Shown: one piece after another, positions 501 through 64,000 of the stretch
Layout: each line of letters begins with the position of its first letter
How positions within the stretch are numbered: the first letter of the stretch is position 1
Source: a phage
Assembly (NCBI GenBank): GCA_008273105.1
Contig: GCA_008273105.1_4080.1
DNA: 64,000 nucleotides
Direction: 5' to 3' (one strand)
Position numbers and translations under genes: made by a program
The notes under the pieces: model-generated
Told to the model about the DNA's origin: nothing
Database searches by the model: none
Seen by the model: the letters and a program-made list of their open reading frames with translations, nothing else

Positions 501-2771
501 TTACTTATACCATTGCATTTCTCTAATATCAATGATAATTTTTGATGCTAACTTGATGTTTGGTTTTTTAGGAAGTACTGATTTCTTATATAGAACATCA
601 CGAATGTATTGTACTTTATCATCGAAATATTCTAAGACTTCTTCATACTTCCATTTACCATTACGAATATCCATCAACATTTGTGCATCTGGTCGTTTAA
701 CTTGAATAATTCCACTTTGTAATGCTTCTTCTGCACTATTCAAAAGTCGGATTGTGTGCATAGCATGTTTACAGTTTCCATGTAATGCAGTTTTACCATT
801 TCTACGAGTAACCAGTGTACCGTTCGGAACTGAAAAACAAACAGTTCTGTAGTTAGTTACTGGAATTTTTTCAAGATTTTGTTTCATGTTTATTTTTTCT
901 GATTTAGGTTTCATATTGATATGAACTTGATACATTTCAATATAACCAAAATTAGTTTCGTTTGTGTATGGTCCCCATTTCGATGTTTCATAACCGCACA
1001 GTAATGCTAGTTTTTGAACATCATCAGCTAATAATGAATTAGCAGTATAATATACATATGTGTCATCATGATTGACCAAATTACGTTTTGTACCATCACC
1101 TTGCAACAAACCTTTTAGCAGAAAATCCATTTTTCGTTTTGTTAAATCAAATGCCCAATTTGGAATTCTTTTATTATATGATCCATGCCCACAATCATTA
1201 TATAATGCTTCAGCCACTTCACGTGGAAATACAAATCTTGATTCATCATTTGATTGGTAATCTTTTCTTTCGTTAATGTATTCCTGAAATATCATTTGTC
1301 CAGATTGTTTGTATTTTGATAAAGCACAACGCATACCAGGACTGGCTTTTGATTGTGAAATGTATAATGATTTTACTTTTCCATCTCTAAAACTTATACT
1401 ACCATCTGAAAGAAACCATCCCATCAGTTGAAGATAAACTTTGATATCCATATAGTCAATTGGGCTTTTTTTATCTTTATATTCCTTTGTTATTGGAGAT
1501 AATGTATTCAAAATTTTATAAGTTTCTTTTAATTGTGCTGCTTCAACAAATTGCCATTCTGACATATCTTTTTGCTGATTACGTGCATAATTCTTAACAT
1601 ACATTCTGTGATTTGCAGTCACTAACGTATCTTGGTGATGACCAGTGAAATGGTAAAGATTTCCATTGTATAAATTATCAAAACGTTCTGTGTATTTTTG
1701 ATACTCTATTTTGTGATTTTTATCAAAAGTCGCTAATAGATCTTTATCAGTGATGTCGTCAAATAATTTCCAACCATCTTTAGTTAAGAATTCAGTATCA
1801 AAACTATAACAGTCGTATCCGTGTTGTGATTCTAAAATAGCACGTTTGGCATTACGATTTTCTTTCCATTTATGATAACTTTTCCTATTCTCACTATTTT
1901 CCTGATATTCTTTTTCGTTAAATTTGACAATTAGTTCTGGTTTAGTTTTCAACTCTTCAGTACTACGCTCTTTAGAAAAATAACGCAATGATCCATCACC
2001 GTTGATAGTGCTTTCATTCGGATTTTTAATAATCGCAAAAATGTTTTCTCCGTAATGAATTAGTTCATAACCATTATTAAAATTCAATAAATTGAAATCA
2101 CGATCAAGAATTTTTTCAGTAGTGTAGTTATGCACTAATCTTACAAAATGATATTGCTTTAATGGATTTTTCGAAACTAACTGCAATGACGTATCACGCA
2201 TATATTTTTCAAAATCAATCTTTTTAGCATTAAATGGATGTAAGTTGGATGTATCTAAACGTTCAACAAGATACTGTGGGAATGAATCATACATCCACGC
2301 AAGAACCTCATCGACAGGGTGTTCTTCTAAAATCTCATTTAATCGTTTTTCAGCAATACGCTCTTTATCCATCCAACCGTGATGATTTGTCATACGCTTA
2401 ATCTGATTATATGCATATCCAGTGTATGAAAATGCAATCTTGGAACTAAGAAGTTTTTGGTTAAATGAACGAAGATAGTCATAAATCTCAGTACTTTCTA
2501 CAATGTGTTCTGGATCGACCCATAGTGATTCCAATATATTAGGGTTGGCTTCAGTGTATAATTTTAAATACTGATTTAACTCATAGAATTTAGTATCTTC
2601 TTCATTTTTATCAGCTACTTCTTTGACCTTATAGAATGGCGTAAGAATAAATTCTTTATTAGCAAGAAAAATACCACGATAATCAGTATCACTTTCAGGT
2701 GTACTGGTTCCGTAGGCTTGTGACCCAGCCAAGTGTTTCACTATTGTTTGTTCAACATATTGGTTATTCAT
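501..2771 (-). CDS. Pol-beta-superfamily nucleotidyltransferase (RNA-repair-associated type) interrupted by an in-frame intein
   Basis: N-terminal LAGSQAYGTSTPESDTD matches the G-S-x-x-Y-G...S-D-x-D signature of minimal nucleotidyltransferases; residues 321-666 carry intein-like blocks; ATG at 2769-2771 verified by reverse-complement translation. Confidence 0.6.
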   Translation of the reverse strand: MNNQYVEQTIVKHLAGSQAYGTSTPESDTDYRGIFLANKEFILTPFYKVKEVADKNEEDTKFYELNQYLKLYTEANPNILESLWVDPEHIVESTEIYDYLRSFNQKLLSSKIAFSYTGYAYNQIKRMTNHHGWMDKERIAEKRLNEILEEHPVDEVLAWMYDSFPQYLVERLDTSNLHPFNAKKIDFEKYMRDTSLQLVSKNPLKQYHFVRLVHNYTTEKILDRDFNLLNFNNGYELIHYGENIFAIIKNPNESTINGDGSLRYFSKERSTEELKTKPELIVKFNEKEYQENSENRKSYHKWKENRNAKRAILESQHGYDCYSFDTEFLTKDGWKLFDDITDKDLLATFDKNHKIEYQKYTERFDNLYNGNLYHFTGHHQDTLVTANHRMYVKNYARNQQKDMSEWQFVEAAQLKETYKILNTLSPITKEYKDKKSPIDYMDIKVYLQLMGWFLSDGSISFRDGKVKSLYISQSKASPGMRCALSKYKQSGQMIFQEYINERKDYQSNDESRFVFPREVAEALYNDCGHGSYNKRIPNWAFDLTKRKMDFLLKGLLQGDGTKRNLVNHDDTYVYYTANSLLADDVQKLALLCGYETSKWGPYTNETNFGYIEMYQVHINMKPKSEKINMKQNLEKIPVTNYRTVCFSVPNGTLVTRRNGKTALHGNCKHAMHTIRLLNSAEEALQSGIIQVKRPDAQMLMDIRNGKWKYEEVLEYFDDKVQYIRDVLYKKSVLPKKPNIKLASKIIIDIREMQWYK
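774..1811 (-). mobile_element. intein with LAGLIDADG homing-endonuclease domain (about 346 aa), in frame within the nucleotidyltransferase CDS
   Basis: Begins with Cys (CYSFDTEFLTKDGW, block A-like), LVTANH resembles block B TxxH, two LAGLIDADG-like motifs (LMGWFLSDGSI and LLKGLLQGDGTK), ends ...ALHGN followed by Cys+1 (CKHAM); penultimate residue is Gly rather than the usual His. Confidence 0.5.
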
Positions 2772-3169
2772 AGATAAATTGTTAACTCCTTTAAGAAACC
2801 GTTATAATAACGATTAAAGTCATGTTCTAATGTTTTATAATCATCAAAACTAAAACCTAAATTGATAATTGTATCTTCTTGAAAGAAAGTTTCTTCATTC
2901 ATACATTCAATTGGTTCGTAATTAATTCCACCTTTAAAAACTTTTGTAAAAAATATTCCATCATTATTAATTTCAACATACATAAAATTATTTTCTGGGT
3001 CACGAGGGCAGACGATATTCAGTGAACTATTTCCACTCGTGTTGTACTCATAAGAAATTATATCAAAAGAATCAATACCATAACACTTAGATTTTTCTTT
3101 ATCACCAAATACTTTTCTATCTGTACTCATATTGCGTATAGTGCTGTAGATATCATCAACTGTAGTCAT
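2768..3169 (-). CDS. hypothetical protein (133 aa)
   Basis: Track ORF in same-strand dense array; start overlaps upstream stop; no recognisable motif. Confidence 0.45.
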   Translation of the reverse strand: MTTVDDIYSTIRNMSTDRKVFGDKEKSKCYGIDSFDIISYEYNTSGNSSLNIVCPRDPENNFMYVEINNDGIFFTKVFKGGINYEPIECMNEETFFQEDTIINLGFSFDDYKTLEHDFNRYYNGFLKELTIYL

Positions 3170-40971: not shown

Positions 40972-41276
40972 TTTATTACCTCTATATCTACATCAGTTCC
41001 ATAATATGATATTAATCCATCATCCGATTCACACTGAATAGACAACTCAGATTCATAGTATGTTACTTTATTCACTGTTAGTACTTGTTCTTCAATTACT
41101 CCAGAAAAATAATTCATCTCACGTACACGAACTTTAGTTCCTTTAGGTAGTTCATCTGATATTTTTCGAACAAGTTCAAAAGCAGCCTGTTCAAGTGTGT
41201 ATAGTAATTGTAATCTATCTTGGATATTCATATTATTTCCACCAACTGGTATCACGACCATTAGAAAAAGATTCAT
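40968..41276 (-). CDS. hypothetical protein (102 aa)
   Basis: Track ORF. Confidence 0.45.
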   Translation of the reverse strand: MNLFLMVVIPVGGNNMNIQDRLQLLYTLEQAAFELVRKISDELPKGTKVRVREMNYFSGVIEEQVLTVNKVTYYESELSIQCESDDGLISYYGTDVDIEVIK

Positions 41277-41922
41277 TGTACTGATGCCTAAAATTAGTTT
41301 TTGGATTATTGTTCATAGTACTAATGAAATTAAATTTAACATTTTCTTGGATATATCTAATAACACTATCTTTAAATTTAATAGTACTGAAATCTAAATC
41401 CAAATGTTCATACAATACAGGATGGCAAAACTCATGTGTACGCAATGATGGCATGGTATCCTTAATGTATTGTATAGTATTAATCATTGCATTGTACTCA
41501 GGCATAGCACGCATCATCATTAGCTGAAAGTGTTCTTCCTCTGACATTGACTCATCCAAATCAATAACGACTTCATCATTTTTAGAGTCATAAACTTTAA
41601 TGGTACTCTTGGTTGGATCAAGCATAGCCCACTCTGGATACAGGCATGTTTTCCAAAAAGGATTATTGCACTGAAACATACTAATGAGATTTTGTTCTTT
41701 ATCAAAAATAGCAAATCCAAGATCCGAACTTGGTTGTACTTCACATACACAAATATCGTAAGACGAGTCTTCAGTACTGAGTGAACCAACTACATTTGAT
41801 ATATGTGAATATGGAGTTTCTCTTGACTCCAACTGAAATGTACTTTCAATTCGATTGATTTGTGGATGTAATGTAATTACACCCCTTAGTACATATAAAA
41901 TTCTATCTAAATCTTTAATCAA
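41233..41922 (-). CDS. hypothetical protein, FQ-motif family member (229 aa)
   Basis: Contains EEEHFQLMMM in the family-typical position. Confidence 0.5.
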   Translation of the reverse strand: MIKDLDRILYVLRGVITLHPQINRIESTFQLESRETPYSHISNVVGSLSTEDSSYDICVCEVQPSSDLGFAIFDKEQNLISMFQCNNPFWKTCLYPEWAMLDPTKSTIKVYDSKNDEVVIDLDESMSEEEHFQLMMMRAMPEYNAMINTIQYIKDTMPSLRTHEFCHPVLYEHLDLDFSTIKFKDSVIRYIQENVKFNFISTMNNNPKTNFRHQYNESFSNGRDTSWWK

Positions 41923-42497
41923 AATTCTATCCCCGTATCGGTTAATTTCGTTCCGTCCATGTACTTGACGGTTATTTCAAGGCGACTCTCAGTACTCAAT
42001 TTTTGAAGATCATTGTAGTACAATTTAAATTCTTCAAAGAACTCAAGTGGTGGAATATCGTATAAAGTACTAATCTGGAAGTGCTCAGGTAATCCAAATT
42101 CCAATATATCAATCTTAGGCATAAGACCATCGGCTGCTGCACCTTCTGGAGTACTGCTGTCTGCTACATAAAACATAGAATTACCATGACGCTGGATAAC
42201 GAATATGCAATCATCTTCACTTACATAAATCATATTTCCAAGGTATGGATCGTTATCACACCAATTATCATGGACGAGTTGTTCAACTTGAAGTAAATCT
42301 TTTATAATTCCCTGACCACTATCGTCAACTAGAATATGTAAACCAGAACAATCTTTGCTCAACCAGCGGTATCTTGCATCACATCCTGATTCCATAAATG
42401 GATATTTTGAAAAATCCATATCAGTACCATTATAAAACCAATCGTACCACTCGTTACGCATAGTAATCAGCTTAGTACTTAATTCTAATACATTCAT
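41919..42497 (-). CDS. hypothetical protein, FQ-motif family member (192 aa)
   Basis: Contains PEHFQISTLYDIPPLEFF. Confidence 0.5.
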   Translation of the reverse strand: MNVLELSTKLITMRNEWYDWFYNGTDMDFSKYPFMESGCDARYRWLSKDCSGLHILVDDSGQGIIKDLLQVEQLVHDNWCDNDPYLGNMIYVSEDDCIFVIQRHGNSMFYVADSSTPEGAAADGLMPKIDILEFGLPEHFQISTLYDIPPLEFFEEFKLYYNDLQKLSTESRLEITVKYMDGTKLTDTGIEF

Positions 42498-48783: not shown

Positions 48784-48799
48784 TATATAATTCCTTTTG

Positions 48800-50025: not shown

Positions 50026-50880
50026 TCAGTTATATTCGGTTTTTTCTGTGAAATTTGTTAGTATATCAACACTAAAACTTCGAATAACCTCAATCTTGCT
50101 TGGCATGAAACGGTGTTTATTTTTAATATACAACTCATCATCTTCAATAAAAGATGTAAAAATGAATGCCATATCTTCACGTGGAATTTGTAAAATATCA
50201 CACATTTCATTTGCCGATGCTACTGGTGAATCATTATAGTACTGAGAGTATGCACTAGATTGGCGACCGATTATAATAGAATTTCTGATTAGAAAATTAC
50301 TACAGTACTGAAAATCTTTGTAGTACTTTTCAATAATGTACGGCATAAGTGCTTCTTTCACGTCTTCATAACCATTAGTACTATCAATTGCTATACAGTA
50401 ATCTTCACGTTCTTTTTTCTCATGATGGTAATCATAAACATACTCAAAGAATGAATTTTTATTTAATGAATCATTTAAACCAACTGACCCACTATAGTAT
50501 GATTTTCTATCATTCATTCGATCATCTGGGCATGATGCATACATAGAAGTGTCATGTGATGATGTACCAATATAAATTTTCTTAGTAATATGATTATACG
50601 CTATGTAATCATAATCTTGAACTCCAGTCAGCATTAACTGGAACATTAAATCATCAGGAACATCAATTAACGGGTACTCAAACTTCGAATATCTACTGCG
50701 GCAGAAGTTCTTTTCAAATGCTCGGTATGCGATAAAATCTTTTAGATTTTTACAAGATTCATGTTCATGAGCACTACTGCTACGTACATTGACATTAGTC
50801 GATGTGCAATATCCATCCGAATCTTCGGTGAAGTTACCAGCATAATCCTTATTGTAGTCAACGATTAGATAAAGTTTCAT
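50026..50880 (-). CDS. hypothetical protein with FQ-motif (about 284 aa)
   Basis: Track ORF begins at a TTG inside the upstream terminator; ATG at about 50880 (MKLYLIVDY) with GGAG RBS is more plausible; contains DDLMFQLMLTG. Confidence 0.5.
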   Translation of the reverse strand: MKLYLIVDYNKDYAGNFTEDSDGYCTSTNVNVRSSSAHEHESCKNLKDFIAYRAFEKNFCRSRYSKFEYPLIDVPDDLMFQLMLTGVQDYDYIAYNHITKKIYIGTSSHDTSMYASCPDDRMNDRKSYYSGSVGLNDSLNKNSFFEYVYDYHHEKKEREDYCIAIDSTNGYEDVKEALMPYIIEKYYKDFQYCSNFLIRNSIIIGRQSSAYSQYYNDSPVASANEMCDILQIPREDMAFIFTSFIEDDELYIKNKHRFMPSKIEVIRSFSVDILTNFTEKTEYN

Positions 50881-52054: not shown

Positions 52055-52903
52055 TTATAATGTTTCTTTTATGTTATGTAACATAGTATTAACTATGTTC
52101 ATCTTCCCGCCTAACTTGAAGTAATATTCCAATTTATTAATAATATTACTTTTTAATATCTCAAATATTTGATATTCATTTGTTTCGAAACTAAGTTCGA
52201 ATTGGAAAGTATATAAATTGTTGAATAGATGTACCAACGATGCATCAGGTGATTCCATTGTAAATGTGTAGTTGGCACGATAACCAGTACTAATCACCAC
52301 TTCCGATGATTCACCTTTCATGGATATGTCAATATTATACATCATTGGGCGACCAGTTGCAATATCTTTCATTCGGAAGAATGCAGTACTACGATACACA
52401 ACACCATCTTCTGTAACCTTTTCTTGTATAGTGATATTTGAAACTTCACTCTCTTTGAATTTGGATTCGAATGAATGAATACGATTTGATTTTTCATCAT
52501 CCGTATACATAGTGCATGTATATTTTCCAAAATCATCACTAGATGTATATGATTTATCGCTGGCGGTTTTATAAAACGAAACCCCATTGATGTGTTCTTC
52601 TTTGTACATCATTGTGTCATTGGATTTGTAGTATGAACAATTAGGTGTTGAAAGAGATTCAAAATTGTTCACATCATGACAGTAAGAAATAGAAGAATCG
52701 CTATACAGTACTACATCACGAATTGCAACTTCTTTTGAAGTACCTTTTTTGACAGAAATTTGAAAGTCATTGCATGGGAAGATTCTATATCCATCGTATG
52801 TATCTGATGTACTGATACCAAATGGTGTTGGGGAATTCAGAAATTCGTTGATATGTTCAAGTACTGAATACTTTTTGAAATTACGAAAATCTGTTGTATC
52901 CAT
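52055..52903 (-). CDS. hypothetical protein (282 aa)
   Basis: Track ORF. Confidence 0.5.
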   Translation of the reverse strand: MDTTDFRNFKKYSVLEHINEFLNSPTPFGISTSDTYDGYRIFPCNDFQISVKKGTSKEVAIRDVVLYSDSSISYCHDVNNFESLSTPNCSYYKSNDTMMYKEEHINGVSFYKTASDKSYTSSDDFGKYTCTMYTDDEKSNRIHSFESKFKESEVSNITIQEKVTEDGVVYRSTAFFRMKDIATGRPMMYNIDISMKGESSEVVISTGYRANYTFTMESPDASLVHLFNNLYTFQFELSFETNEYQIFEILKSNIINKLEYYFKLGGKMNIVNTMLHNIKETL

Positions 52904-53586: not shown

Positions 53587-54084
53587 TTAAGTCACTGCAT
53601 TATACTTCTCTATAGCATTAGTAATATTTAATATAGCTTCAGGAACCATTTCTTTATTGTATTCACGTTTTAAATTTTCCATTTTCTTAATAATTTCCAA
53701 GAAAAATGGCAAAATACATGAAGTATCTGTAAAATTACATGAGTACAAAGTACTCATTTGAAATAATTCACCTGAATCAATATTAAGAGATTTGTATTCC
53801 TTAACAATGTTTTCGTTTGTATTGAAAATATGAAATACTGTTCCCATGTGATGAAGATATACACCATTCTCATTTTGAATATGGCATGGTGTGATTACAA
53901 TAGCAGTGTTGTCAATATTATTTACTATTGATAAACGTAGACTATGTAAACCTAAAATAACAGTACAATCACTTGAACTGCTTTGAATTTGGTCAGCAGT
54001 TTGTGTAACACTTGTAATATTTTCCCCATCAAGACAACTCTTGATTTTATCAAATGAATTTTTCATTGATTTAGTTAGATACAT
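53587..54084 (-). CDS. FQ-motif family protein (165 aa)
   Basis: Contains GELFQMSTLY. Confidence 0.5.
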   Translation of the reverse strand: MYLTKSMKNSFDKIKSCLDGENITSVTQTADQIQSSSSDCTVILGLHSLRLSIVNNIDNTAIVITPCHIQNENGVYLHHMGTVFHIFNTNENIVKEYKSLNIDSGELFQMSTLYSCNFTDTSCILPFFLEIIKKMENLKREYNKEMVPEAILNITNAIEKYNAVT

Positions 54085-54488
54085 TTATGAACACCTTCGA
54101 AATATTTGATTAATGATTTTATCATATCGCTACTAATGCCATGTAAGTCAACACCTAAACACTCGTATTGAAAAAAATCAATATCCTCCAGTGTGTTTAG
54201 ATCAATTTCCACCTTATCATGACCCAACGAATTCATAATAACGTTTTTATCATTAATTGTCAAGAAAGTTTTTTTATCTGAACCTAAAAAGATTTTTACA
54301 TGTTTTTTTGGCATTACATCATAAGATAAAGATTGTGAACCATAAATGTATATGCCTTCCATTGAACCAATATCTATAAAATATAGACGAATCCCTTTGT
54401 GGTATTTTGACTCCTTAGTGATCGCCTCTATTAGTTCATCTGTGGTTGTTAACCTTGTTTCTTTCTTCTCTAAATTGCTCAAATGCAT
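54075..54488 (-). CDS. hypothetical protein, possible diverged FQ-motif member (137 aa)
   Basis: Contains DFFQYECLG. Confidence 0.45.
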   Translation of the reverse strand: MHLSNLEKKETRLTTTDELIEAITKESKYHKGIRLYFIDIGSMEGIYIYGSQSLSYDVMPKKHVKIFLGSDKKTFLTINDKNVIMNSLGHDKVEIDLNTLEDIDFFQYECLGVDLHGISSDMIKSLIKYFEGVHKCI

Positions 54489-54909
54489 AAAATAATACCT
54501 TGATCATTTGTAATGTTTCCGACATTACATCAGCAGAAAATTGAACATCAGTGTATTTTACCATAGTACTTTGAGTAAAGAAAGTAGCTTCAATATCTTC
54601 AAGGTCAAATGGCTCATCAAATAAATTAGTACTGAACATATCAGTTTTTTTCTTATAAGTCAACATAAACTTAGCACTGTATCTCAATACAATTTCATCT
54701 TTACTTACTAAAATTCGTGCAATGTTCTGTCTACCCAGTGTTGTAATGTTAACATTAAACGTATTCTTTCGTGCCTCAACAATATCAACGAAATAACCAT
54801 CACCTTGGTAAACGTTATGACGAACTTCTAATCCTTGTTGAACTGTATTGAACAGTGCGTCCTGGATAAAATAATTTGCAGTATCGATGTTTCCTAAAAT
54901 ATCTAACAT
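54436..54909 (-). CDS. hypothetical protein (157 aa)
   Basis: Track ORF. Confidence 0.45.
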   Translation of the reverse strand: MLDILGNIDTANYFIQDALFNTVQQGLEVRHNVYQGDGYFVDIVEARKNTFNVNITTLGRQNIARILVSKDEIVLRYSAKFMLTYKKKTDMFSTNLFDEPFDLEDIEATFFTQSTMVKYTDVQFSADVMSETLQMIKVLFYAFEQFREERNKVNNHR

Positions 54910-55439
54910 AACTTCTCCTTTATAGCTGTCATATTTAGAAGAAATTCAGTAAGCAATTCCTCCGTAACATGCTCTGTATACCAGAATATCACAATATCTT
55001 TTGAAAGTCGTGTATTCATAAAAATATCTACTAACTCTTTGTAGAACTCTAGTGTTTCGAGATTTGTGAGAATTAACGAGTACTGAAAGAGTAATTCTTC
55101 CGTTAGATTAAATTCTGGATAAAGTAAATCATTGAACTCATGTGATGCAGTTTGAACTTTAATTTCTTTGAAGTTATTGGTTATACAACCGGAATAAATA
55201 TTTCGGTGCAACTCTCTGTACAACGCAGCATAATCTATGAATTTTGCTTTAGGGTTAAAATCAAGAACACTTTCACCTTTATATGACAATCGGTGGAACG
55301 CCGAGAACATAGTCACTTCCCACGGTTGCTTAATATCTAGCTCAGTAATATCAATATTATTGGACAGAAGAACCGTAAAAATCTCACCAATCTTTAATAG
55401 TAACTTAGTACGTGCCAGTGCTACCATCGGGTCAGTCAT
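54903..55439 (-). CDS. FQ-motif family protein (178 aa)
   Basis: Contains TEELLFQYSLIL. Confidence 0.5.
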   Translation of the reverse strand: MTDPMVALARTKLLLKIGEIFTVLLSNNIDITELDIKQPWEVTMFSAFHRLSYKGESVLDFNPKAKFIDYAALYRELHRNIYSGCITNNFKEIKVQTASHEFNDLLYPEFNLTEELLFQYSLILTNLETLEFYKELVDIFMNTRLSKDIVIFWYTEHVTEELLTEFLLNMTAIKEKLC

Positions 55440-55852
55440 TATACACCTTCATATTCATCAAGAAAATCTTCGATAATCATTTCAGCTTCATCCATATGCA
55501 TAGCATCAACTTCAATGATGCGAACTTTAGATGCATCCCAAATCATAAAGCTAGGAACATTGTCTGGCTCGTAATCATTTTTGTACTGAACAGCATCATA
55601 ACCTTGAGCAGTGCAATTCTCAATAAGTGAACGCCACTCATCATCACTGCCTAAATCTTCACACAGAAGCACGTTATCAACATCAACTTCTAAGGTATGC
55701 AAGTATACTGTACATGCGTCTACTACGTTCAGTGGGCTTCTCAGCTTGCGTAATGCAGCTTCCAAAGCACTGTGTTTACCTCCCATATGAAGACCACCAT
55801 ACGGGATATAAAAGTTATCAATTTTTACAGTACTCGCATGATACAGTTTCAT
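55439..55852 (-). CDS. hypothetical protein (137 aa)
   Basis: Track ORF; distinct from array neighbours (MKLYHASTVKIDNFYIPYGGLHMGGKHS). Confidence 0.5.
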   Translation of the reverse strand: MKLYHASTVKIDNFYIPYGGLHMGGKHSALEAALRKLRSPLNVVDACTVYLHTLEVDVDNVLLCEDLGSDDEWRSLIENCTAQGYDAVQYKNDYEPDNVPSFMIWDASKVRIIEVDAMHMDEAEMIIEDFLDEYEGV

Positions 55853-55861
55853 ATTTCATTC

Positions 55862-56446
55862 CTATTTCAGTACTTTAGTCAATGCTTTCACAGCGGTTTC
55901 GAGTTGAGCATAGTCGTTAATTGTAAGGTAATGAATACCATGTGCCTTCATTTCAGCATCTATTTTACTATATAAATCAAACATGTCAAGGATATGATTG
56001 TATGCATATGAAGTATTTGAAACACACAATTCTTGGAACAAACGTTCTTCCAAGTCATTCACAACTTCTCCATGAATATCAAGTACTACACCATCTTTGT
56101 AAGTGTAGTACTCTTCACTCCACTCTTCAGAAAGTCGGAACAGTAACGGATTCCCGCCGAACACTTCCATGTCATAGGAATTTATCTCACTAAGTAGTGT
56201 TTCACCTGGTTCTGGTGTGAAGTCAAAATATGCGAGTGTTGTACCATCATAGTCCTTGAGTGATATACCAGTATGATTTAAGGTTACTTCACCATAATTA
56301 TTATTCTTGAACTTGATTTTGATATTAATCTCAATGTATTTTATTGTCTCATCATCACTGAAATTGTAATCAACTTTATACTTTTTCCAAAGAAGTTTGA
56401 TATCTTTGAAGTACTTTAATTTACTTTCAATTTCTTTAAAGTCCAT
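55862..56446 (-). CDS. FQ-motif family protein (194 aa)
   Basis: Contains LEERLFQELCVS. Confidence 0.5.
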   Translation of the reverse strand: MDFKEIESKLKYFKDIKLLWKKYKVDYNFSDDETIKYIEINIKIKFKNNNYGEVTLNHTGISLKDYDGTTLAYFDFTPEPGETLLSEINSYDMEVFGGNPLLFRLSEEWSEEYYTYKDGVVLDIHGEVVNDLEERLFQELCVSNTSYAYNHILDMFDLYSKIDAEMKAHGIHYLTINDYAQLETAVKALTKVLK

Positions 56447-57038
56447 CTGGAACCACCATTTCTTGAATGTGCTTACATTTTATATTTGCCATATTGGTAT
56501 GTAATATAATGCTGTGTTTACGCAATGATTTTACTTTGTAGCACTCATTGAGTACTGAAATAATTCCCCATAACTCTTCTACACTAATAGTGATAGGTTC
56601 ACTTGTACTCAGTTGCATCAGTGCTGCTTGAACATCATCTTTGTTATTAATAGTGAACTGGATTCCTCTTTTGAGAATTTTAGTTTTTGGATTGTACTCA
56701 GCTAATACATCACCTTCTGGATAACCCTCATGAAGTAATAATGTTGTTTCAAAATCACCGCAGTTGAAGTTAATTTCATCATAATCAGGTACACAAATGT
56801 TCCCTTCCCCGTACTCATTAGGTTCAGATTCTAGTGTTAAAATACGCTGAGTTTCATTGCTCAGGATGATAGAATCATTCCAGTACTGGGTAGTGAATGC
56901 TCTACGTTTCTTTTGAAAGCACATACTCGACATTGACCCATACTTCTTGTATATGGACTTCTTGAACTCAATAGCAGCAGGAGCCACCTTGATAACTTCA
57001 CGAATTAAGTCAATAGCTTCTTGATAACTTTTTCTCAT
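56436..57038 (-). CDS. hypothetical protein (200 aa)
   Basis: Track ORF in array. Confidence 0.45.
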   Translation of the reverse strand: MRKSYQEAIDLIREVIKVAPAAIEFKKSIYKKYGSMSSMCFQKKRRAFTTQYWNDSIILSNETQRILTLESEPNEYGEGNICVPDYDEINFNCGDFETTLLLHEGYPEGDVLAEYNPKTKILKRGIQFTINNKDDVQAALMQLSTSEPITISVEELWGIISVLNECYKVKSLRKHSIILHTNMANIKCKHIQEMVVPDGL

Positions 57039-57586
57039 TTATCGTATCCATATAAAATATGATCTAGTGTACTTTGTACTTCTTCATGAAAGAATGAAGG
57101 GTAAACTTGTATCAATTTATCTTTAAGTTCAAGGGAATGGCATAGTTCTAATGTTTTGTAACAATCCTCGTACTGTGCCAGATCATGTAATGTACTTAAC
57201 TGAAAATGTTGTTCTTCGGAGTACAATAAATCATAAACCATATTATCGGATAAAAGATTAGATTTGATTGAAGGATCAAGTACTGTCTGGTGGTGACCAA
57301 CCCAAAAGATAGCTTTTGAGTTAATGTTATTACAACCCCATCCTTTCCCCATCTTTTGGTGAATAGCAAATACACAGGAATCATACAAATTAATGCTCAG
57401 ACGTTCTTCGTCTGCATGGATAGTTACACCATCAATAGATAGTGTATATTTGAAATCCATAGCCCCCTCACTTCGTGCACGAGAACTAAAGACCAGATAT
57501 CGATGAATTATGGTATTGATTTTATCTGTCCATCCATCAACACATTTGGATGCACATAATGTAAAAAGATCATGATTGTAGTTCAT
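57035..57586 (-). CDS. FQ-motif family protein (183 aa)
   Basis: Contains SEEQHFQLSTLHDLAQYE. Confidence 0.5.
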   Translation of the reverse strand: MNYNHDLFTLCASKCVDGWTDKINTIIHRYLVFSSRARSEGAMDFKYTLSIDGVTIHADEERLSINLYDSCVFAIHQKMGKGWGCNNINSKAIFWVGHHQTVLDPSIKSNLLSDNMVYDLLYSEEQHFQLSTLHDLAQYEDCYKTLELCHSLELKDKLIQVYPSFFHEEVQSTLDHILYGYDK

Positions 57587-57647
57587 AAAATTCTCCTTTA
57601 GGACAATGTATCATACAAAAATACCAGAGTCAACCCCTGGTACGAAT

Positions 57648-58229
57648 TTAATCCATCATAAGTGGGATAATTGCCCATATCTTTTTCATAATCATATCTT
57701 CAGTAAAAACAAATGTTTTAGGAGCAGTATATGATATTGACACACCAAATGGAAGTTTGATTGCATCATCAATTATATTATGAATATCAAACCATGTTTT
57801 AACATAATCATACGGTGGAAGTTCATGAATTGTACTTAACTGAAAGTAATTCTCTTCACCAAAATCACTATATTCAATTTCACAAATTTTAGTGAATTGA
57901 TGATTCCATTTAGATATAATACTATTTTTATTATTGTACATAGTAGTTCTATGCATAAAACCATTTTTGCTAGTATGATTTGATATTACGTTTTCTTCAA
58001 TGTCAGTATCTATTTTAAAATTCATATCAAAGTTGTAGTACGGACTCGAAGATTCTTTGAATTTTAAATGTAAATTACGATTGTTATTAATTTCAATTTC
58101 AATACAAAACACATCTGAATCAAAACGATTAAACTTGTAATCGTTATCTTCCGGTAGATTCTGTATTTTTTTCATAATACTAAGCATAGGGTGTACTACA
58201 CTTTTAATAAAATCATTTGTTATTTTCAT
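57648..58229 (-). CDS. FQ-motif family protein (193 aa)
   Basis: Contains GEENYFQLSTIHELPPYD. Confidence 0.5.
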   Translation of the reverse strand: MKITNDFIKSVVHPMLSIMKKIQNLPEDNDYKFNRFDSDVFCIEIEINNNRNLHLKFKESSSPYYNFDMNFKIDTDIEENVISNHTSKNGFMHRTTMYNNKNSIISKWNHQFTKICEIEYSDFGEENYFQLSTIHELPPYDYVKTWFDIHNIIDDAIKLPFGVSISYTAPKTFVFTEDMIMKKIWAIIPLMMD

Positions 58230-58722
58230 AGTATTCCTTTAGAACTTTATATGATTCAACAATACTATCTTGTGTATAATTTGAACTATATACAACAGCA
58301 CTTGTTTTAGTTGACCATAGATATGACATAAAGGTTATAACACTACTACATGGACTTAATGTATTGTTTTGAAATTCAATTTCTTCAATGTTATCAGTAC
58401 TGGTATAGATGAATTGGAAAGTATCCATTGATTTATTGGACAGCGATACTATAGTAGAATCCGTACCAGGACTATACATGAATGTCTCATTGCTAATAGT
58501 ACTATCATTAGTATATGATGGTTTAGGAATATAAATCAAACGCATGATATCACGCTCCAGACCTGACTTATTACTTTCCACCAAAGAAATCATATCTATA
58601 TTTGTTATATGTTCAACACTGACATGGAACTTTTTGTTTAGAATTACATCTTTTGGAGAATTTTTATATGAAGACAAAATCTCATACATCTCAACCAATT
58701 CGCGTGCATTTAATAAACTCAT
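58213..58722 (-). CDS. hypothetical protein (169 aa)
   Basis: Track ORF in array. Confidence 0.45.
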   Translation of the reverse strand: MSLLNARELVEMYEILSSYKNSPKDVILNKKFHVSVEHITNIDMISLVESNKSGLERDIMRLIYIPKPSYTNDSTISNETFMYSPGTDSTIVSLSNKSMDTFQFIYTSTDNIEEIEFQNNTLSPCSSVITFMSYLWSTKTSAVVYSSNYTQDSIVESYKVLKEYYENNK

Positions 58723-59147
58723 GTTTTGTCTCTTAATGAAAGAATATCCTTAGTATAAACTGAAACAGAAATATGATTATATTTCATCATTAATTTATAC
58801 ACATAAGAAGCTAGTACTAAATCGTAAATTAATTTAGTATTATATAGTACTTGGTATTGTAACGCAAGTGAATCAATATCATCTTTACTTTCAATATCCA
58901 GAAATGTACCAAAAATTGTAGTACCGTAGAGATGAAAAGTGGAATTAATGCAATCAATGCATTCATTGTCCAACAGAGTAGATGATGATGCCCTCGGTGA
59001 ATCCCAAATAGTCACTGCGTGTATGCCCTCAACGAACAAATCTATCCATATTTTGTGTCGTTGTCTTTTTTTTGTTTTATAATTTTCTGGATTTGAAAGT
59101 GTAGTTTCAATTATATCCCATATGTACAAACAATCATCTCTTGTCAT
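58719..59147 (-). CDS. hypothetical protein (142 aa)
   Basis: Track ORF in array. Confidence 0.45.
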   Translation of the reverse strand: MTRDDCLYIWDIIETTLSNPENYKTKKRQRHKIWIDLFVEGIHAVTIWDSPRASSSTLLDNECIDCINSTFHLYGTTIFGTFLDIESKDDIDSLALQYQVLYNTKLIYDLVLASYVYKLMMKYNHISVSVYTKDILSLRDKT

Positions 59148-59725
59148 TATAGCACCTTATCCATTGCTGCATTTAATGCTGTTAAACGATCTACATTCAA
59201 ATTATTGAAGATGTATGTTCCTAACATGTGGAAATCGAACTGGTACTTTTTGTATTCATGATAAATTAAACTACAAAAAATAACAGTACTAAGAACCTCT
59301 TCAGGTATAACAGTGCTCATCTGGAACAGTTCTTCTTTAACTGTACTTGATTCTGGATTGATAGATTTTAACACATACTCTTCATCACCGAATAGTACTT
59401 TAATATTATATAAAACACCAATAGTACTAATATGGAATGGGTGGTGTGAAAAACTTCCATCATCCTTAATTTGTATATCGGTTATAATCTCACACTCTTC
59501 ATTACTTTTATTTTTATTTTTTACAATACAAATATTTCTAGCCCCAGAAATAGTAAGAATACCGTGATCGTAATATTCATTGGACCAACATTTAGATGAA
59601 ATTGCTACATCACGGATGAGGTATTGTTTTTCAATTTCTTTTGCACTACTAACAATTGATAACATTTTTGTACTGATATCATATAATAACTGATGGCGTT
59701 CTGTCATATAACTATAAGCGTTCAT
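59147..59725 (-). CDS. FQ-motif family protein (192 aa)
   Basis: Contains VKEELFQMSTVIPEE. Confidence 0.5.
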   Translation of the reverse strand: MNAYSYMTERHQLLYDISTKMLSIVSSAKEIEKQYLIRDVAISSKCWSNEYYDHGILTISGARNICIVKNKNKSNEECEIITDIQIKDDGSFSHHPFHISTIGVLYNIKVLFGDEEYVLKSINPESSTVKEELFQMSTVIPEEVLSTVIFCSLIYHEYKKYQFDFHMLGTYIFNNLNVDRLTALNAAMDKVL

Positions 59726-60296
59726 ATTTTTCCTTAACCGATTCTATATTTTGAAGTAGTGTATTCAGAACATCAGTCTTGTAATTGATAAAATCATTGT
59801 ACATAACTAGTTCACCACAATCAAGAACTTTTGCAGTATCGTAACAAAGCATTAAGTACTCGAATTCTTTGTAATTGTCCAACAATGATTTCTGGAAAAT
59901 GAATGCATCTCGAATATCTTCACTTTGGTCTAATTCTGGTGGAACATCCAACCCAATAAAACCATCATCTTCACTGAAATCAGATTCTACAATTTTATTC
60001 ATTTTTTCATGTAATGCATTCGCAAATACCATATTAGAAGAAATAGAACCAATACGTTCACGATTTCTGGATGTGCGAATGTACATAGTAATCGTATCCC
60101 ATGAACTTTTAATTTTTTTAGAAAATTCATAAGTTTTATATACATCCAACTGAACTGAACCAAAACGATGTTTGGATTTGTTTTCAATTTTCAGTCGATA
60201 ATCACCAAATTCAACAATTTCTGTAATGTCATGAATCTCTGAAAGTTCTGCAATGTCATGCATGAGTCTCAAAATTTTAGTTCTGATATGGTTCAT
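59712..60296 (-). CDS. FQ-motif family protein (194 aa)
   Basis: Contains RDAFIFQKSLLDNY. Confidence 0.5.
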   Translation of the reverse strand: MNHIRTKILRLMHDIAELSEIHDITEIVEFGDYRLKIENKSKHRFGSVQLDVYKTYEFSKKIKSSWDTITMYIRTSRNRERIGSISSNMVFANALHEKMNKIVESDFSEDDGFIGLDVPPELDQSEDIRDAFIFQKSLLDNYKEFEYLMLCYDTAKVLDCGELVMYNDFINYKTDVLNTLLQNIESVKEKYERL

Positions 60297-60859
60297 TGTG
60301 CATCCTCGAATTTAACAGGTACATGTTCATTAATGAAATTCTTAAGAGCCTGTACTAAATCCTCTAATTCTTTTGTACTGTATTTTAAAATAGTTTTAAA
60401 GTGAATCAAATCTTTTCTTTCCATGATCTTTGGAATTTTATATGCTAACTCTAAACAGCGTACAGTACTGGTATCATACAAAAGGTTTGCGTTGAACATT
60501 AGCACATTGTATTCATCAGATGAAATTTTATAATTATATGTATCAATCACTTCATGTGTGTATAAATTCTTATACACAATTTTATTCTCACTGAAGTTTG
60601 AGCAAACACACAGATAATCGTTGTAAAATGAAGAACGATAATCTTGTTTACGTTGTACATCTGCTATGATTTGTAATACTGTATATTTTTCTTCAGAATC
60701 CAACTCAATGTTAGCATAACTGCTCGCAGTTTCAGATACAAGGATATTGATGTTATATTTCTCATTAACTTTAATGTACTGGCGTGAACCAGTATCAGGA
60801 ATGAACTTAAAACAATGCTTCAGAAGTAAGGTAACTTCTTTAATTAATTCAGTACTCAT
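60293..60859 (-). CDS. hypothetical protein (188 aa)
   Basis: Track ORF; AGGAG RBS; first gene after the promoter at about 60887-60915. Confidence 0.5.
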   Translation of the reverse strand: MSTELIKEVTLLLKHCFKFIPDTGSRQYIKVNEKYNINILVSETASSYANIELDSEEKYTVLQIIADVQRKQDYRSSFYNDYLCVCSNFSENKIVYKNLYTHEVIDTYNYKISSDEYNVLMFNANLLYDTSTVRCLELAYKIPKIMERKDLIHFKTILKYSTKELEDLVQALKNFINEHVPVKFEDAQ

Positions 60860-60886
60860 ATCTTCTCCTGTACTCTATTAAAAGCG

Positions 60887-60915
60887 ATTATAACACATCT
60901 GAATGCTACTGTAAA
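60887..60915 (-). promoter_or_regulatory. sigma70-like promoter (TTTACA, 17 nt, TATAAT)
   Basis: Read on the minus strand: TTTACA gtagcattcagatgtgt TATAAT, directly downstream of a terminator and about 30 nt upstream of the 60859 ATG. Confidence 0.45.
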
Positions 60916-60924
60916 GACGTAAAC

Positions 60925-60948
60925 ACAAAAAGACCCAATACGGGTCTT
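60925..60948 (-). terminator. rho-independent terminator
   Basis: Minus-strand hairpin agacccgtattgggtct followed by TTTTTG, immediately after the stop at 60948. Confidence 0.5.
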
Positions 60949-61514
60949 TATTTTGGTAAAACACTGTCAATGTACGCTAGAGCTTCATCTCTGAGGTATG
61001 TTCCATCTATCGTTAGGTAATAGTTCATGGGAATATCACTCCCAACCTTCTCATAAATTTTCATACATGATATCACATCTTCATCACAAATGGTACTTAA
61101 TTGAAAAAGTACTTCATCAGTTAAAGGTACGATATCATGTTTAGATATAGGATTGGTATTTTCATTTAAAACAATATCAAACAAGTTGGGAGTATTCTTT
61201 GACGAAATGTAACGATGTTTACTACGAATTACCATTCTCGATAGTGAAATACTGGAACTCCATCTTGGGTCCACATCTTCGTATGATAATGAAACTAACA
61301 TTTCATAATAATCTTGGAATTTCATTGATGCATAATATGTTTTTTCCTCACCGTACATTCCAAATGATTTGAATTCAATGTCACCTATATTGTGTGTATC
61401 ACTGGCACTATTCACGAAATTTAACAGACTGTTGATTAGTCTAATTAGAATATCATCTTTATCCATTCTTAAATAACTCCAAGTGCATGTCGTATAAATC
61501 TCTGAAGTCTTCAT
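60948..61514 (-). CDS. FQ-motif family protein (188 aa or slightly shorter)
   Basis: Contains TDEVLFQLSTICDED; N-terminus overlaps upstream ORF so internal start possible. Confidence 0.5.
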   Translation of the reverse strand: MKTSEIYTTCTWSYLRMDKDDILIRLINSLLNFVNSASDTHNIGDIEFKSFGMYGEEKTYYASMKFQDYYEMLVSLSYEDVDPRWSSSISLSRMVIRSKHRYISSKNTPNLFDIVLNENTNPISKHDIVPLTDEVLFQLSTICDEDVISCMKIYEKVGSDIPMNYYLTIDGTYLRDEALAYIDSVLPK

Positions 61515-62022
61515 AGAAATCTTTTTCTACCAGAATATCCTTTAAACTAGGAAACTCTTCCATAATTTCTTCTATATCCGATTCTATGAAAAACCCTGAT
61601 GGTTTATCGTAGTTTTGTAACAGATAACTGAAAGTAATAATGTAAAGAAGTTCATTAGGATTGTGAATTAAACTTAGCTGGAACATAGCTGATTCTAAAT
61701 CGGATTCAGTACTAAGATCAACCCAACGTGAATTTCTATAATCAATTCGTACTTGACTTGTATTTGGATTCCATGTGAAGCAATGTGTACCAATATGACC
61801 TATACAACCAACCCTTGTACTGTCTCCGGTATCAACACTGATATCAACAAATAGTTCAACACAGATATCGGATGATGTTACACGACCTTTTTTCAGAAAT
61901 AAATCATTATCCTTACGAAATTGTTTGGATGAAAGAGTGTCAATGATGCACATCAATGTTTTTGCAAATGCAACACAATGACGAAATTCAAGCCTATGAA
62001 ATTGGTAATCATTGATATTCAT
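61459..62022 (-). CDS. FQ-motif family protein (187 aa)
   Basis: Contains LESAMFQLSLIHNPNE. Confidence 0.5.
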   Translation of the reverse strand: MNINDYQFHRLEFRHCVAFAKTLMCIIDTLSSKQFRKDNDLFLKKGRVTSSDICVELFVDISVDTGDSTRVGCIGHIGTHCFTWNPNTSQVRIDYRNSRWVDLSTESDLESAMFQLSLIHNPNELLYIITFSYLLQNYDKPSGFFIESDIEEIMEEFPSLKDILVEKDFYEDFRDLYDMHLELFKNG

Positions 62023-62561
62023 AATTCAACCCCCAATATTTTATCAGCAATTGATATAACCTTATCATTGAATACATTACCAATCTCAATCCTTATATAC
62101 ATAGCAGGTGGAATCTTTCCTTGTAGTGAATAATATGTTTGTATACCTAAGTACTCATTATCTGATAATGAAAATTTGATTCTCTCCATATCAATGTCTG
62201 TTACTGGTAAATCAATCATTTCATAATGGTAGTCAACGTTTTCAGTGTATATTTTATCGAAGTAATTTGAATAATCACTACTAATATAGATGCTATCATC
62301 ACGAATAATCACTTTATAATCAGAAGGTTCAAATTTATCTTTAGAAGAAAAGAATGCATCATCTATCTTCTCTTCTCTTATACCGAATAACATTTTACCA
62401 TCATATTTTACATCAAGAATACTACCTAGTATATTAATGGTACAATGCTCATCAATATTATGACGTAAAGAACGAGTCTTGTATTTTGGGTTAATGAAAA
62501 TTTTCATTAATTTTATACAAATGTCAGTAATGTATTTTACATTCTCATTTTCTATGTACAT
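62019..62561 (-). CDS. hypothetical protein, possible diverged family member (180 aa)
   Basis: Track ORF in array. Confidence 0.45.
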   Translation of the reverse strand: MYIENENVKYITDICIKLMKIFINPKYKTRSLRHNIDEHCTINILGSILDVKYDGKMLFGIREEKIDDAFFSSKDKFEPSDYKVIIRDDSIYISSDYSNYFDKIYTENVDYHYEMIDLPVTDIDMERIKFSLSDNEYLGIQTYYSLQGKIPPAMYIRIEIGNVFNDKVISIADKILGVEL

Positions 62562-63048
62562 TAAAAGCCCTCTTTAATTCTTTTACATTTTTAATGAATA
62601 CTTTCATTGCAGAAATCTCAAAAGATAATGTATTAAATTTGCAGTACTTTTTAAAGTACGACATTATGAATAACATTTTGAGTTCTTTTTCTGTATAAAT
62701 TAAACTGTTTTGAAAGTAACTTTCTTCGGAAATGTCCGTAAGAAAAGAATAAAATGTATTTTGCTTGTGCACAATTTTAATACTATCAGACCAAGATTTG
62801 TATGAAACGTAATCAGTACGTGCAAAATCATATAGTGAATTAGATGTATCTGTGTATGTTTCCGAGAACACAATCTTATATATCTTATCGTGAATTCGAG
62901 AACATATGTACCTATGGTCATCTGTCTCACTGATTGCAATGTATCTATGGAGTAAATCTTTATGAGCATTGATGAACTCAAACACTTCTAAACACTCCTT
63001 AGCGAACTTCATAGTTTCTCTGTACTTTCGGTTCATTAGTCTCTCCAA
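62545..63048 (-). CDS. FQ-motif family protein (167 aa)
   Basis: Contains SEESYFQNSLIYTE. Confidence 0.5.
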   Translation of the reverse strand: MERLMNRKYRETMKFAKECLEVFEFINAHKDLLHRYIAISETDDHRYICSRIHDKIYKIVFSETYTDTSNSLYDFARTDYVSYKSWSDSIKIVHKQNTFYSFLTDISEESYFQNSLIYTEKELKMLFIMSYFKKYCKFNTLSFEISAMKVFIKNVKELKRAFNVHRK

Positions 63049-63449
63049 ACTTTACCAGGGAAGTGTTTTTCGTAGTACTCATCATCACTTAACATATAAT
63101 CAGGAGTTTCTACTTCTATGGTTTTGAAGATTGTTTCTGGAATGTGTGTGACTTTATTGGGTTGTACTTTATGTTCGCGTAAAACCTTCTGTATCGCTCC
63201 TAGACGTTGTAAATCGATACATGTAGGAAGAACTAAGCTGTACTGGAATAACTCATCAGGGGTCATTATAGACACATCCTTAGCTTGTTTGATTTTATTG
63301 TTGGCATCAATGAATATATCAAATCCATGTACAGCATTATAGCTTACATAGGTTGTTTTATTTTTGTCAATAGGAGCACTTAAACGATATCCATATACCC
63401 CGTGTTGATCAACAAGACAGCGTTGCATAATTTTAATCATTTCTAACAT
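63036..63449 (-). CDS. FQ-motif family protein (137 aa)
   Basis: Contains TPDELFQYSLVLPT. Confidence 0.5.
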   Translation of the reverse strand: MLEMIKIMQRCLVDQHGVYGYRLSAPIDKNKTTYVSYNAVHGFDIFIDANNKIKQAKDVSIMTPDELFQYSLVLPTCIDLQRLGAIQKVLREHKVQPNKVTHIPETIFKTIEVETPDYMLSDDEYYEKHFPGKVWRD

Positions 63450-63795
63450 AATTTACCTCATATGTATTGTAACACCACGGTTTAACAATATCTATTTGTA
63501 TATCATTTGCTTCATGAAAATGTTTAAGTACCTTTTGGTATTCCATTATTTCGTACACATCTTCAGTACTTATAGTGTTCTCCTGAAACAATTCCTCTTC
63601 TGATAAAGTACTATAATCAGGGATTTTTATTTCTGAATATATATCATTTATCTTTCCATTATTTTGATAAATCTGAATATAAAATTGATTGTACTCTGGA
63701 ATATAGGTTACATAATGGTTGTAGTTGATTACATATCTTGAAACAAAGTATTCAGAACCATCAGTCATGTACTGAATTGTTTTCTTATTTTGCAT
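63433..63795 (-). CDS. FQ-motif family protein (120 aa)
   Basis: Contains SEEELFQENTISTED. Confidence 0.5.
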   Translation of the reverse strand: MQNKKTIQYMTDGSEYFVSRYVINYNHYVTYIPEYNQFYIQIYQNNGKINDIYSEIKIPDYSTLSEEELFQENTISTEDVYEIMEYQKVLKHFHEANDIQIDIVKPWCYNTYEVNYVRND

Positions 63796-64000
63796 TCAAA
63801 TAATCCACGCATTTATAGTAGACTGCTAAATCTAAAAAGAATCGTTGATTGTATTTGTAATGATTAAGTAGTGCACCATAAAATAACATAGCATTAAGTA
63901 CTTTTGTATCATTAATCAATGATTTCTGAAAGTACATTTCCTCTGACATGAATACTAAATCATTATATGGAACTTGTACTGCTTCTCTAAATGTATCAAT
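63785..64000 (-). CDS. partial CDS (5' end beyond window end), FQ-motif family
   Basis: Hand-translated open minus-strand frame ...VFMSEEMYFQKSLINDTKVL...VDYLNAK ending with TAA at about 63785. Confidence 0.4.
   Translation of the reverse strand: MDTFREAVQVPYNDLVFMSEEMYFQKSLINDTKVLNAMLFYGALLNHYKYNQRFFLDLAVYYKCVDYLNAK

Follow-up and report, generated by a model that had tools for sequence, protein, structure and literature searches.

The window analysed here is a phage DNA stretch of 64,000 nucleotides (NCBI GenBank assembly GCA_008273105.1, contig GCA_008273105.1_4080.1; one strand, 5' to 3'), and its last part, positions 53,587 to 64,000, belongs to a long minus-strand tandem array of small genes in which strongly diverged members share the motif [ST]-E-E-x-[YL]-F-Q-x-S-[TL]-[VIL]-[YH]-[DNS]. 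Our analysis supports the view that the array genes are true paralogs, produced by repeated tandem duplication and diverged around this one conserved element, as an original prediction made from the letters alone had proposed. The family is old, kept by selection, still duplicating locally, and restricted to one clade, the RaK2-like phages. From context, including the analogy with a suspected early gene block of a related phage, we tentatively prefer the reading that its products may be early cytoplasmic proteins that bind different host proteins, in the service of host takeover or counter-defence.

Motif, membership and extent of the array

The peptides quoted in the original prediction, together with their open reading frames (ORFs), were confirmed on the minus strand of the window. 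The core pattern FQx[ST][LTIV] occurs in 11 of the 21 array genes (20 complete and one truncated by the window end) and in 3 of the 97 other minus-strand ORFs, while 1000 shuffles of the array proteins gave a mean of 0.17 occurrences and a maximum of 2. In confirmed members the motif lies 57–80 residues before the C-terminus, within the 50–80 first proposed.

The DNA of this region matches 34 phage records, 31 of them covering at least 80% of the query, and these are without exception jumbo phages of Escherichia or Salmonella that belong to the Asteriusvirus type (121Q, PBECO4, phAPEC6, G17, Sharanji). The closest is phage JP4 (PQ330092.1), with 99.5% identity, and the DNA of 121Q is 97.5% identical; where the records are annotated, the genes that the match covers all carry the label “hypothetical protein”. 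Pairwise BLAST links few of the array genes of the window, clear paralogs being found in JP4 just past the window end, and is therefore too insensitive for the window genes, so that profiles were needed. An iterative profile hidden Markov model (HMM) seeded with these clear paralogs converged on about 40 ORFs and recruited no shuffled or reversed decoys. Leave-one-out E-values were between 2e-4 and 1e-28 for most members, the exceptions being window ORF 57648-58229, which is weak (E 0.01), and 2768-3169, which fails. An alignment of 107 sequences places the motif in a single register, with Phe and Gln each conserved in 106 of the 107 and Ser in 98, followed by the two Glu (78 and 82) and the preceding Ser/Thr (76). 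Strong conservation of polar residues in the family is confined to the motif, where it involves Ser/Thr, Glu, Glu, Gln, Ser and Asp. When only 10 window sequences were aligned, just 19 database matches were obtained, because the window members are the most diverged ones.

The features of the array in the window are listed below; the hhalign background for window ORFs is 0.1–0.5%, and lengths are in amino acids (aa).

53587..54084, minus: family member, 165 aa, GELFQMSTLY, final gene of the array (HMM E 1.2e-11; leave-one-out E 1.9e-4; hhalign 90%)
54075..54909, minus: two interleaved ORFs, doubtful as members, with degenerate, motif-like sequences (54075-54488, DIDFFQYECLG; 54436-54909, EATFFTQSTMV); hhalign about 1% at the motif region; each in its own PHROG of unknown function
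54903..55439, minus: family member, 178 aa, EELLFQYSLIL (HMM E 1.5e-9; leave-one-out E 4e-6)
55439..55852, minus: interleaved ORF, 137 aa, without the motif, membership undetected (hhalign 0.2%; phrog_11632, unknown function)
55862..56446, minus: marginal ORF, 194 aa, ERLFQELCVS (hhalign 1.2% at the motif; HMM E 2.7)
56436..57038, minus: interleaved ORF, 200 aa, AALMQLSTSE, membership undetected (hhalign 0.7%, outside the motif region)
57035..57586, minus: family member, 183 aa, EEQHFQLSTLH (HMM E 1.7e-8; leave-one-out E 8.9e-5)
57605..57643, minus: intergenic; hairpin terminator (57643-57621) overlapping a sigma-70-like promoter, TTGACT-17-TACATT (57633-57605)
57648..58229, minus: family member, 193 aa, EENYFQLSTIH (HMM E 5.6e-11; leave-one-out E as above; hhalign 93.5%; reciprocal best RaK2 37961-38554)
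58213..59147, minus: two probable diverged members, 58213-58722 (EIEFQNNTLS; HMM E 1.6e-5) and 58719-59147 (hhalign 5.1% and 5.8% at the motif region)
59147..59725, minus: family member, 192 aa, EELFQMSTVI (HMM E 1.9e-12; reciprocal best RaK2 35202-35786)
59712..60859, minus: two probable diverged members, 59712-60296 (AFIFQKSLL) and 60293-60859 (hhalign 10.7% and 7.1% at the motif region)
60887..60949, minus: intergenic; hairpin terminator (60949-60929), then a near-consensus sigma-70 promoter, TTTACA-17-TATAAT with TG extension (60915-60887)
60948..61514, minus: family member, 188 aa as longest ORF, DEVLFQLSTIC (HMM E 1.2e-14; hhalign 95.9%)
61459..62022, minus: family member, 187 aa, SAMFQLSLIH; clear reciprocal RaK2 orthologue 34062-34670 (44.7 bits)
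62019..62561, minus: interleaved ORF, 180 aa, without the motif, membership undetected (hhalign 0.2%)
62545..63036, minus: family member, 163 aa, EESYFQNSLIY (HMM E 7.8e-29; AlphaFold model)
63036..63449, minus: family member, 137 aa, PDELFQYSLVL (HMM E 3e-10; hhalign 90%)
63433..63795, minus: short-form family member, 120 aa, EEELFQENTIS, without the N-terminal helix (HMM E 1.5e-15; phrog_13866)
63785..64000, minus: family member cut by the window end, EEMYFQKSLIN (the JP4 gene has 164 aa)

Thus, among the 13 genes first listed as carrying the motif, the profile confirms 11, leaves 59712-60296 as probable and reduces 55862-56446 to marginal. The ORFs 58213, 58719 and 60293, with hhalign values of 5–7% at the motif region, are probably very diverged members. 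As a side observation on gene starts, the longest ORF at 60948-61514 shares 56 bases with its upstream gene; a start 16 codons downstream, at window position 61466, which would give a protein of 172 aa, is favoured by both the JP4 annotation and phrog_35776.

The count of roughly 20 genes up to the window end was correct for the window, but the array runs about 18 kb further past position 64,000, up to JP4 169,464. The full array therefore corresponds to JP4 169,464-197,789 (197,789 being window 53,587), that is, about 28.3 kb, 68 annotated genes and about 8% of the genome, and at least 40 of these 68 genes belong to the family; the corresponding stretch of PBECO4 has 38 detectable members. 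The part in the window is the promoter-distal third of the array. The window as a whole has a GC content of about 30–36%, and 82 of its 84 ORFs of at least 100 aa are on the minus strand.

Regarding its genome setting, JP4 contains an exact direct duplication of 20,114 bp (about 122.8-142.9 kb and 142.9-162.9 kb), which is almost certainly the direct terminal repeat, placed internally because the deposited sequence is permuted. The duplication matches the repeats reported for Sharanji (a direct terminal repeat of about 20.7 kb) and CBB (22.5 kb; PMC5259590), and it accounts for the extra length of some 20 kb that JP4 (370.7 kb) has over 121Q (348.5 kb). Some 6.6 kb separate the duplication from the start of the array: downstream of the repeat come a promoter-rich gap of 249 bp, then a separate family of 29 small ORFs, and then the array, with all transcription directed away from the repeat. 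This second tandem family lies outside the window, directly upstream of the array (JP4 163,117-169,474), and consists of tightly packed ORFs of 52–90 aa with a motif of their own, (L/F)-x-G-T-N-Y-Q-E-x-Y-V.

Predicted fold, age and distribution of the family

The members are proteins of 100–200 aa, mostly acidic (median isoelectric point 4.96; median net charge -9, with a few between -18 and -26), and none has a hydrophobic segment reaching the membrane-like value of 1.6, on which ground a membrane or secreted role was rejected. A role as virion or internal protein was also rejected, from the proteomes of phAPEC6 and JP4: none of the 62 phAPEC6 virion proteins is numbered between gp347 and gp549, a gap that contains the family member gp442c, and the four hypothetical proteins of JP4 validated as structural are all encoded outside the array (CDS0419-0486).

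Two AlphaFold models were obtained, one for the product of 62545-63036 from a 72-sequence family alignment (mean predicted local distance difference test score, pLDDT, 81.5; predicted template modelling score, pTM, 0.81), and the other for the paralog P0050, which is about 27% identical to it (pLDDT 85.2; pTM 0.81). Both have the same order of elements, namely a long N-terminal helix, 6–7 strands, a short helix that carries the motif, a turn, a long helix, a strand and terminal helices. The motif helix spans residues 104-111 in the first model and 109-115 in the second, and the objection that the motif matches might be due to chance fails on this shared secondary-structure context. The motif and the helix that follows it are the most confident part of both models (pLDDT about 88–96), and the beta-sheet is lower in both confidence and conservation than the motif and C-terminal half. 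In the short forms the N-terminal helix has been lost, and the motif and the helix after it are retained. The members are small, soluble, non-virion alpha/beta proteins, and their predicted fold has an amphipathic N-terminal helix and a [TL]-[VI]-Y-D turn after the motif helix. A natural fusion of two adjacent short-form members was also observed (P0020, 242 aa), with two copies of the motif, EAALFQESLVFDKKY and EAELFQASLVFDKKY; it corresponds to two separate JP4 genes (region L001 36211-36567 and 36567-36905).

The motif would be the structural keystone of this fold, because its first residues are cap-like, its hydrophobic residues are the most conserved ones, and it occupies the best-packed region of both models. 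Most likely, the Ser/Thr and the two Glu sit at the helix start, the Tyr/Phe and the following aliphatic or aromatic residues pack into the core, and buried hydrogen bonds are probably formed by Gln and Ser, which are near-invariant.

That the motif was at first assigned to no characterised family agrees with the database comparisons. In Pfam, none of the 20 array proteins has a match above 19 bits and all matches are below the cut-off; NCBIfam and PADLOC gave only chance-level matches for 10 members; and no solved structure in the PDB matches the family. In PHROGs, window members match phrog_12674 (62545-63036 with E 1.4e-8), phrog_9317 and phrog_13866, all of unknown function, and since window members cross-match these profiles, parts of the family have already been clustered there; however, PHROGs splits it into dozens of unannotated, singleton-like groups and records neither its unity nor its motif. 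The ten interleaved ORFs that the profile did not recruit are singletons of unknown function by both Pfam and PHROGs.

Word-indexed searches of 5.8 billion proteins returned sequences only from this jumbo-phage group or from contigs. When 1.84 billion cluster representatives were scanned exhaustively with HMMER, no more than 90 reached E <=0.001, most of them with the motif, and the named members among these come from the phages JNE01, RaK2, K64-1 and KP13-7. A back-translated motif scan of IMG/VR had matches in 121Q, RaK2 and two contigs of a single metagenome and nowhere else; one of these two contigs has 9 members in 9.4 kb. Foldseek against BFVD found only uncharacterised proteins of related jumbo phages (GAP32, Serratia BF, Yersinia fHe-Yen9 and Erwinia pEa_SNUABM_47), which matched more weakly and gave no functional lead. 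The sequence P0112 (773 aa, 13 matched stretches) was discarded as a translated tandem DNA repeat.

Klebsiella phage RaK2 has at least 28 tandem members, and three pairs of reciprocal best matches between the window and RaK2 are collinear (61459 with 34062, 59147 with 35202, and 57648 with 37961). Between JP4 and PBECO4, the pooled ratio of nonsynonymous to synonymous substitution rates (dN/dS) is 0.21 within the array versus 0.16 in the flank, and the reading frames are intact in all phages compared. Because of this dN/dS value and the collinear RaK2 orthologues, the divergence is mostly old and has been kept by purifying selection; the rapid diversification first proposed is only partly right, with a few recent local duplications, seen in the JP4 array as tight local clusters of recent duplicates. 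JP4 and PBECO4 also differ by mosaic patches, with a dS of 0.26–0.71 in a background of about 0.02–0.05, some inside the array (62545-63036, 60948-61514 and 54903-55439) and others in the flank (44370-44659, 47733-49420, 50026-50880 and 52055-52903). Gene 62545-63036 occurs in two allele classes (about 98% versus 63–67% protein identity) across phages that are otherwise nearly identical. These patches suggest recombination with diverged relatives, in array and flank alike.

Expression signals and possible function

The array genes mostly overlap by 1–17 bases, with overlapping start and stop codons, and Shine-Dalgarno-like sequences precede 16 of the 20 complete genes. Only two real intergenic gaps exist in the window part of the array (57605-57643 and 60887-60949). 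The few real gaps of the whole array hold near-consensus sigma-70 promoters (for example TTGACA-17-TATAGT, TG-n-TATAAT and TTTACA-17-TATAAT), some of them directly after hairpin terminators, and the late-type motif ATAAATA does not occur on the gene strand within the array. In the related phage CBB, a run of short hypothetical genes next to the terminal repeat (CBB_390-546) is where RpoD-like promoters are concentrated, and the authors suspected this block to be an early, host-takeover region; 22 paralogous ORFs were reported for that whole genome (PMC5259590). Both are long one-directional runs of short genes near a terminal repeat, with RpoD-like TTGACA/TATAAT promoters, in RaK2-like phages, and the array has the RpoD-type promoters in its gaps and the position near the repeat that characterise the CBB block, although the latter was defined by its promoters and not by paralogy. 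By analogy with this suspected early block and from the promoters, the array is probably switched on early in infection.

On the reading that we tentatively prefer, host RNA polymerase would transcribe the array genes from the sigma-70 promoters early in infection, and each product would bind or inhibit a different host protein, one to one. They would form a diversified set of binders on a single scaffold, each paralog kept by selection and varying mainly in the sheet and loops. What may speak for the host-takeover, anti-defence or exclusion role first proposed is indirect, namely the sigma-70-type promoters, the proximity to the terminal repeat, the absence from virions and the acidity. Several points weigh against this reading. 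Neither experimental nor homology-based evidence on function, partner or timing was found, and literature searches turned up no transcriptomes or functional data on Asteriusvirus and RaK2. Over the window region as a whole, sigma-70-like sites show no enrichment (87 versus 90.8 expected), their placement inside the rare intergenic gaps being the sole suggestive aspect. An array-specific arms-race signal was looked for and rejected, given that the high-divergence patches also occur in the flank and that dN/dS is similar inside and outside the array. The burial of Phe, Gln and Ser is read from conservation and secondary structure, and the ten interleaved ORFs show weak or no recognisable membership. 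Finally, a binding or catalytic site shared by the family could just as well be what the 99% invariant Gln and the conserved Glu-Glu and Ser mark.

Such a shared binding site is what an adaptor function would require, in which the conserved helix docks onto one common partner (a host hub such as RNA polymerase, a protease or a chaperone, or else a phage protein) while the variable sheet recruits the targets, similar to the conserved F-box-like end of the poxvirus ankyrin proteins. The confinement of all strongly conserved polar residues to the motif agrees with this, as do the near-invariant Gln, unusual for a purely structural residue, and the short forms, which dispense with the N-terminal helix but not with the motif and its following helix. 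Nevertheless, the motif also contains the most conserved hydrophobic residues, its first three residues resemble an ordinary helix cap, which fits a fold core, it sits in the highest-confidence and best-packed part of both models, and no partner is known; we regard an adaptor as doubtful, though the main rival. A catalytic site, with the Glu-Glu...Gln-x-Ser cluster as the active site of a set of small enzymes, would account for the clustering of near-invariant acidic, amide and hydroxyl residues, but no other conserved polar residue is available to complete it, no enzyme matches the fold or the profile, and forty parallel copies of one enzyme would be unusual; we consider it very improbable. 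The motif can also be read as a protease cleavage site, given that E-x-x-Y-F-Q followed by S resembles the sites of tobacco etch virus (TEV) and 3C proteases. This resemblance (EEMYFQKS, ENYFQLS, EVLFQLS) is all that speaks for such a site: the motif is helical and lies inside a confident, packed core instead of an exposed linker, the residue after Gln is variable with Ser at +2 and not at +1, while TEV/3C-type substrates have G or S directly after E-x-x-Y-x-Q in a flexible segment, no 3C-like protease is found among the annotated genes in the JP4 regions examined, and the sole protease in the phAPEC6 virion table is the prohead core scaffold and protease, array proteins being absent from virions. 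The cleavage-site reading is barely credible, and we rejected it on the structural context of the motif in both models.

A different kind of target is considered if the paralogs neutralise diverse toxins or nucleases (of host toxin-antitoxin systems or abortive infection, or rival-phage weapons) or exclude superinfecting phages, in the manner of the tandem immunity-gene arrays of polymorphic toxin loci. SUKH and SMI1-KNR4-type immunity proteins form tandem arrays and occur in viruses. The many diverged paralogs in tandem, their small, acidic and cytoplasmic character, like that of many nuclease inhibitors and immunity proteins, and the position of dispersed members beside the RNA ligase and polynucleotide kinase genes of an RNA repair set are all in line with this. 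In contrast, the family resembles neither SUKH/SMI1-KNR4-type nor other solved immunity proteins in sequence or fold, no toxin genes adjoin the array, and the members have no membrane segments, which disfavours exclusion at the envelope. The proposal overlaps with the preferred reading and differs only in the class of target; we see it as unlikely in its own right. Quite improbable, in our opinion, is that the array is mostly neutral filler, in which duplications enlarged the genome to fill a larger capsid and the genes have little individual function. Hua et al. (2017, mBio, PMC5646251) interpreted in this way a 121Q array with over 30 “very similar” genes in tandem, to which they devote one sentence, proposing that tandem duplications expand the genome into a larger capsid; at least two other tandem families in the same genome, and the lack of detectable relatives of most members outside the clade, would fit. 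Against neutrality stand the dN/dS of 0.21, similar to that of the flanking genes, the intact reading frames, the persistence of individual paralogs as collinear orthologues between Asteriusvirus and Alcyoneusvirus, and the translational coupling and ribosome-binding sites at most genes.

The array of Hua et al. also bears on how far the family was already described. Like the present array, which is contiguous on one strand, it is from the same phage group, in tandem, read as a product of tandem duplication and larger than 30 genes (about 40 members in JP4 and 38 in PBECO4 here), but their account gives no coordinates, family definition, motif, structure or function. Moreover, only 56 of 666 pairs of the present family reach BLAST E<1e-3, versus 197 of 406 in the neighbouring 29-ORF family; “very similar” therefore fits the latter better, and Hua et al. 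may mean a different array. The RaK2 genome paper (PMC3622015) reported about 10% paralogues. A literature search found no functional study of the family and no definition of its members, motif, fold or function, and the prediction that it is undescribed thus stands except for this possible mention of a 121Q array.

Tandem paralog expansions near the genome ends of giant phages are known as such. Phage SPO1 has a host-takeover module in its terminal repeat, and multigene families exist in poxviruses and African swine fever virus. Likewise, these expansions consist of dozens of tandem, diverged small-protein paralogs near a genome end and are thought to be host-directed, but their folds are unrelated, whereas here we find an alpha/beta domain with one helical motif and no relative detected outside the RaK2-like phages. 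Bacillus phage G, with about 35 zinc-ribbon genes, is another lineage-specific expansion (PMC7824862).

A bolder version of the preferred reading, on which we would place little confidence, is that RaK2-like jumbo phages expanded an undescribed fold into a multigene family larger than any other known from phages (about 40 genes and 8% of the genome), whose paralogs would be specific inhibitors, each for a different host defence or toxin effector, while a host hub common to all may be where the invariant helix docks them. If it were true, the array would offer a new binder scaffold and, in compact form, a catalogue of the counter-measures of the phage, and if members do inhibit host defence or toxin systems, it would be a rich source of new anti-defence proteins. 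Jumbo-phage genes mostly lack a known function (83% of them in phAPEC6). About 40 “hypothetical” genes per genome, scattered over dozens of unconnected PHROG singletons, can now be treated as a single family, for which a motif is defined and a fold is modelled with confidence, unlike any solved structure, and the array block can be tested as a unit. Asteriusvirus and RaK2-like phages are under development for therapy against E. coli and Klebsiella, so the effect of 8% of their genome on the host matters.

Dispersed members and other duplicated genes

The family is not confined to the array. Three further ORFs of the window, the third with less certainty, have the motif in register:

41233..41679, minus: dispersed family-like ORF, SEEEHFQLMMM (HMM E 2.8e-5; hhalign 62%; residue alignment)
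41919..42497, minus: dispersed family-like ORF, LPEHFQISTLYD (HMM E 4.7e-3; hhalign 18%; residue alignment)
2768..3169, minus: possible dispersed member, 133 aa, NEETFFQEDTII (HMM E 3.3e-5; hhalign 30%; fails leave-one-out)

The first two come just after an RNA repair pair, which by the JP4 annotation consists of RNA ligase (39829-40971) and polynucleotide kinase (37800-38732); in the phAPEC6 paper this pair was linked to the countering of Prr abortive infection.

Tandem duplication on a local scale is common all over this genome. At JP4 120,606-122,528 there is a third tandem family, made up of 10 ORFs, each about 60 aa long, that start with M-x-K-E-(F/Y)-Y and end with L-I-(Y/F)-R-Y. Within the window, the minus-strand ORFs 4840-7569 and 8185-10881 encode paralogs of about 900 aa with 27% identity over 940 columns (E 6e-60), and the 195-aa ORF between them (7586-8173, minus) is similar to the last 120 residues of each (E 1e-20 and 1e-14). 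Smaller sets of adjacent paralogs are 3678-4199 with 4206-4772 (E 3e-12), and 45105-45389, 45352-45663 and 46239-46514 (E 6e-6 and 2e-4).

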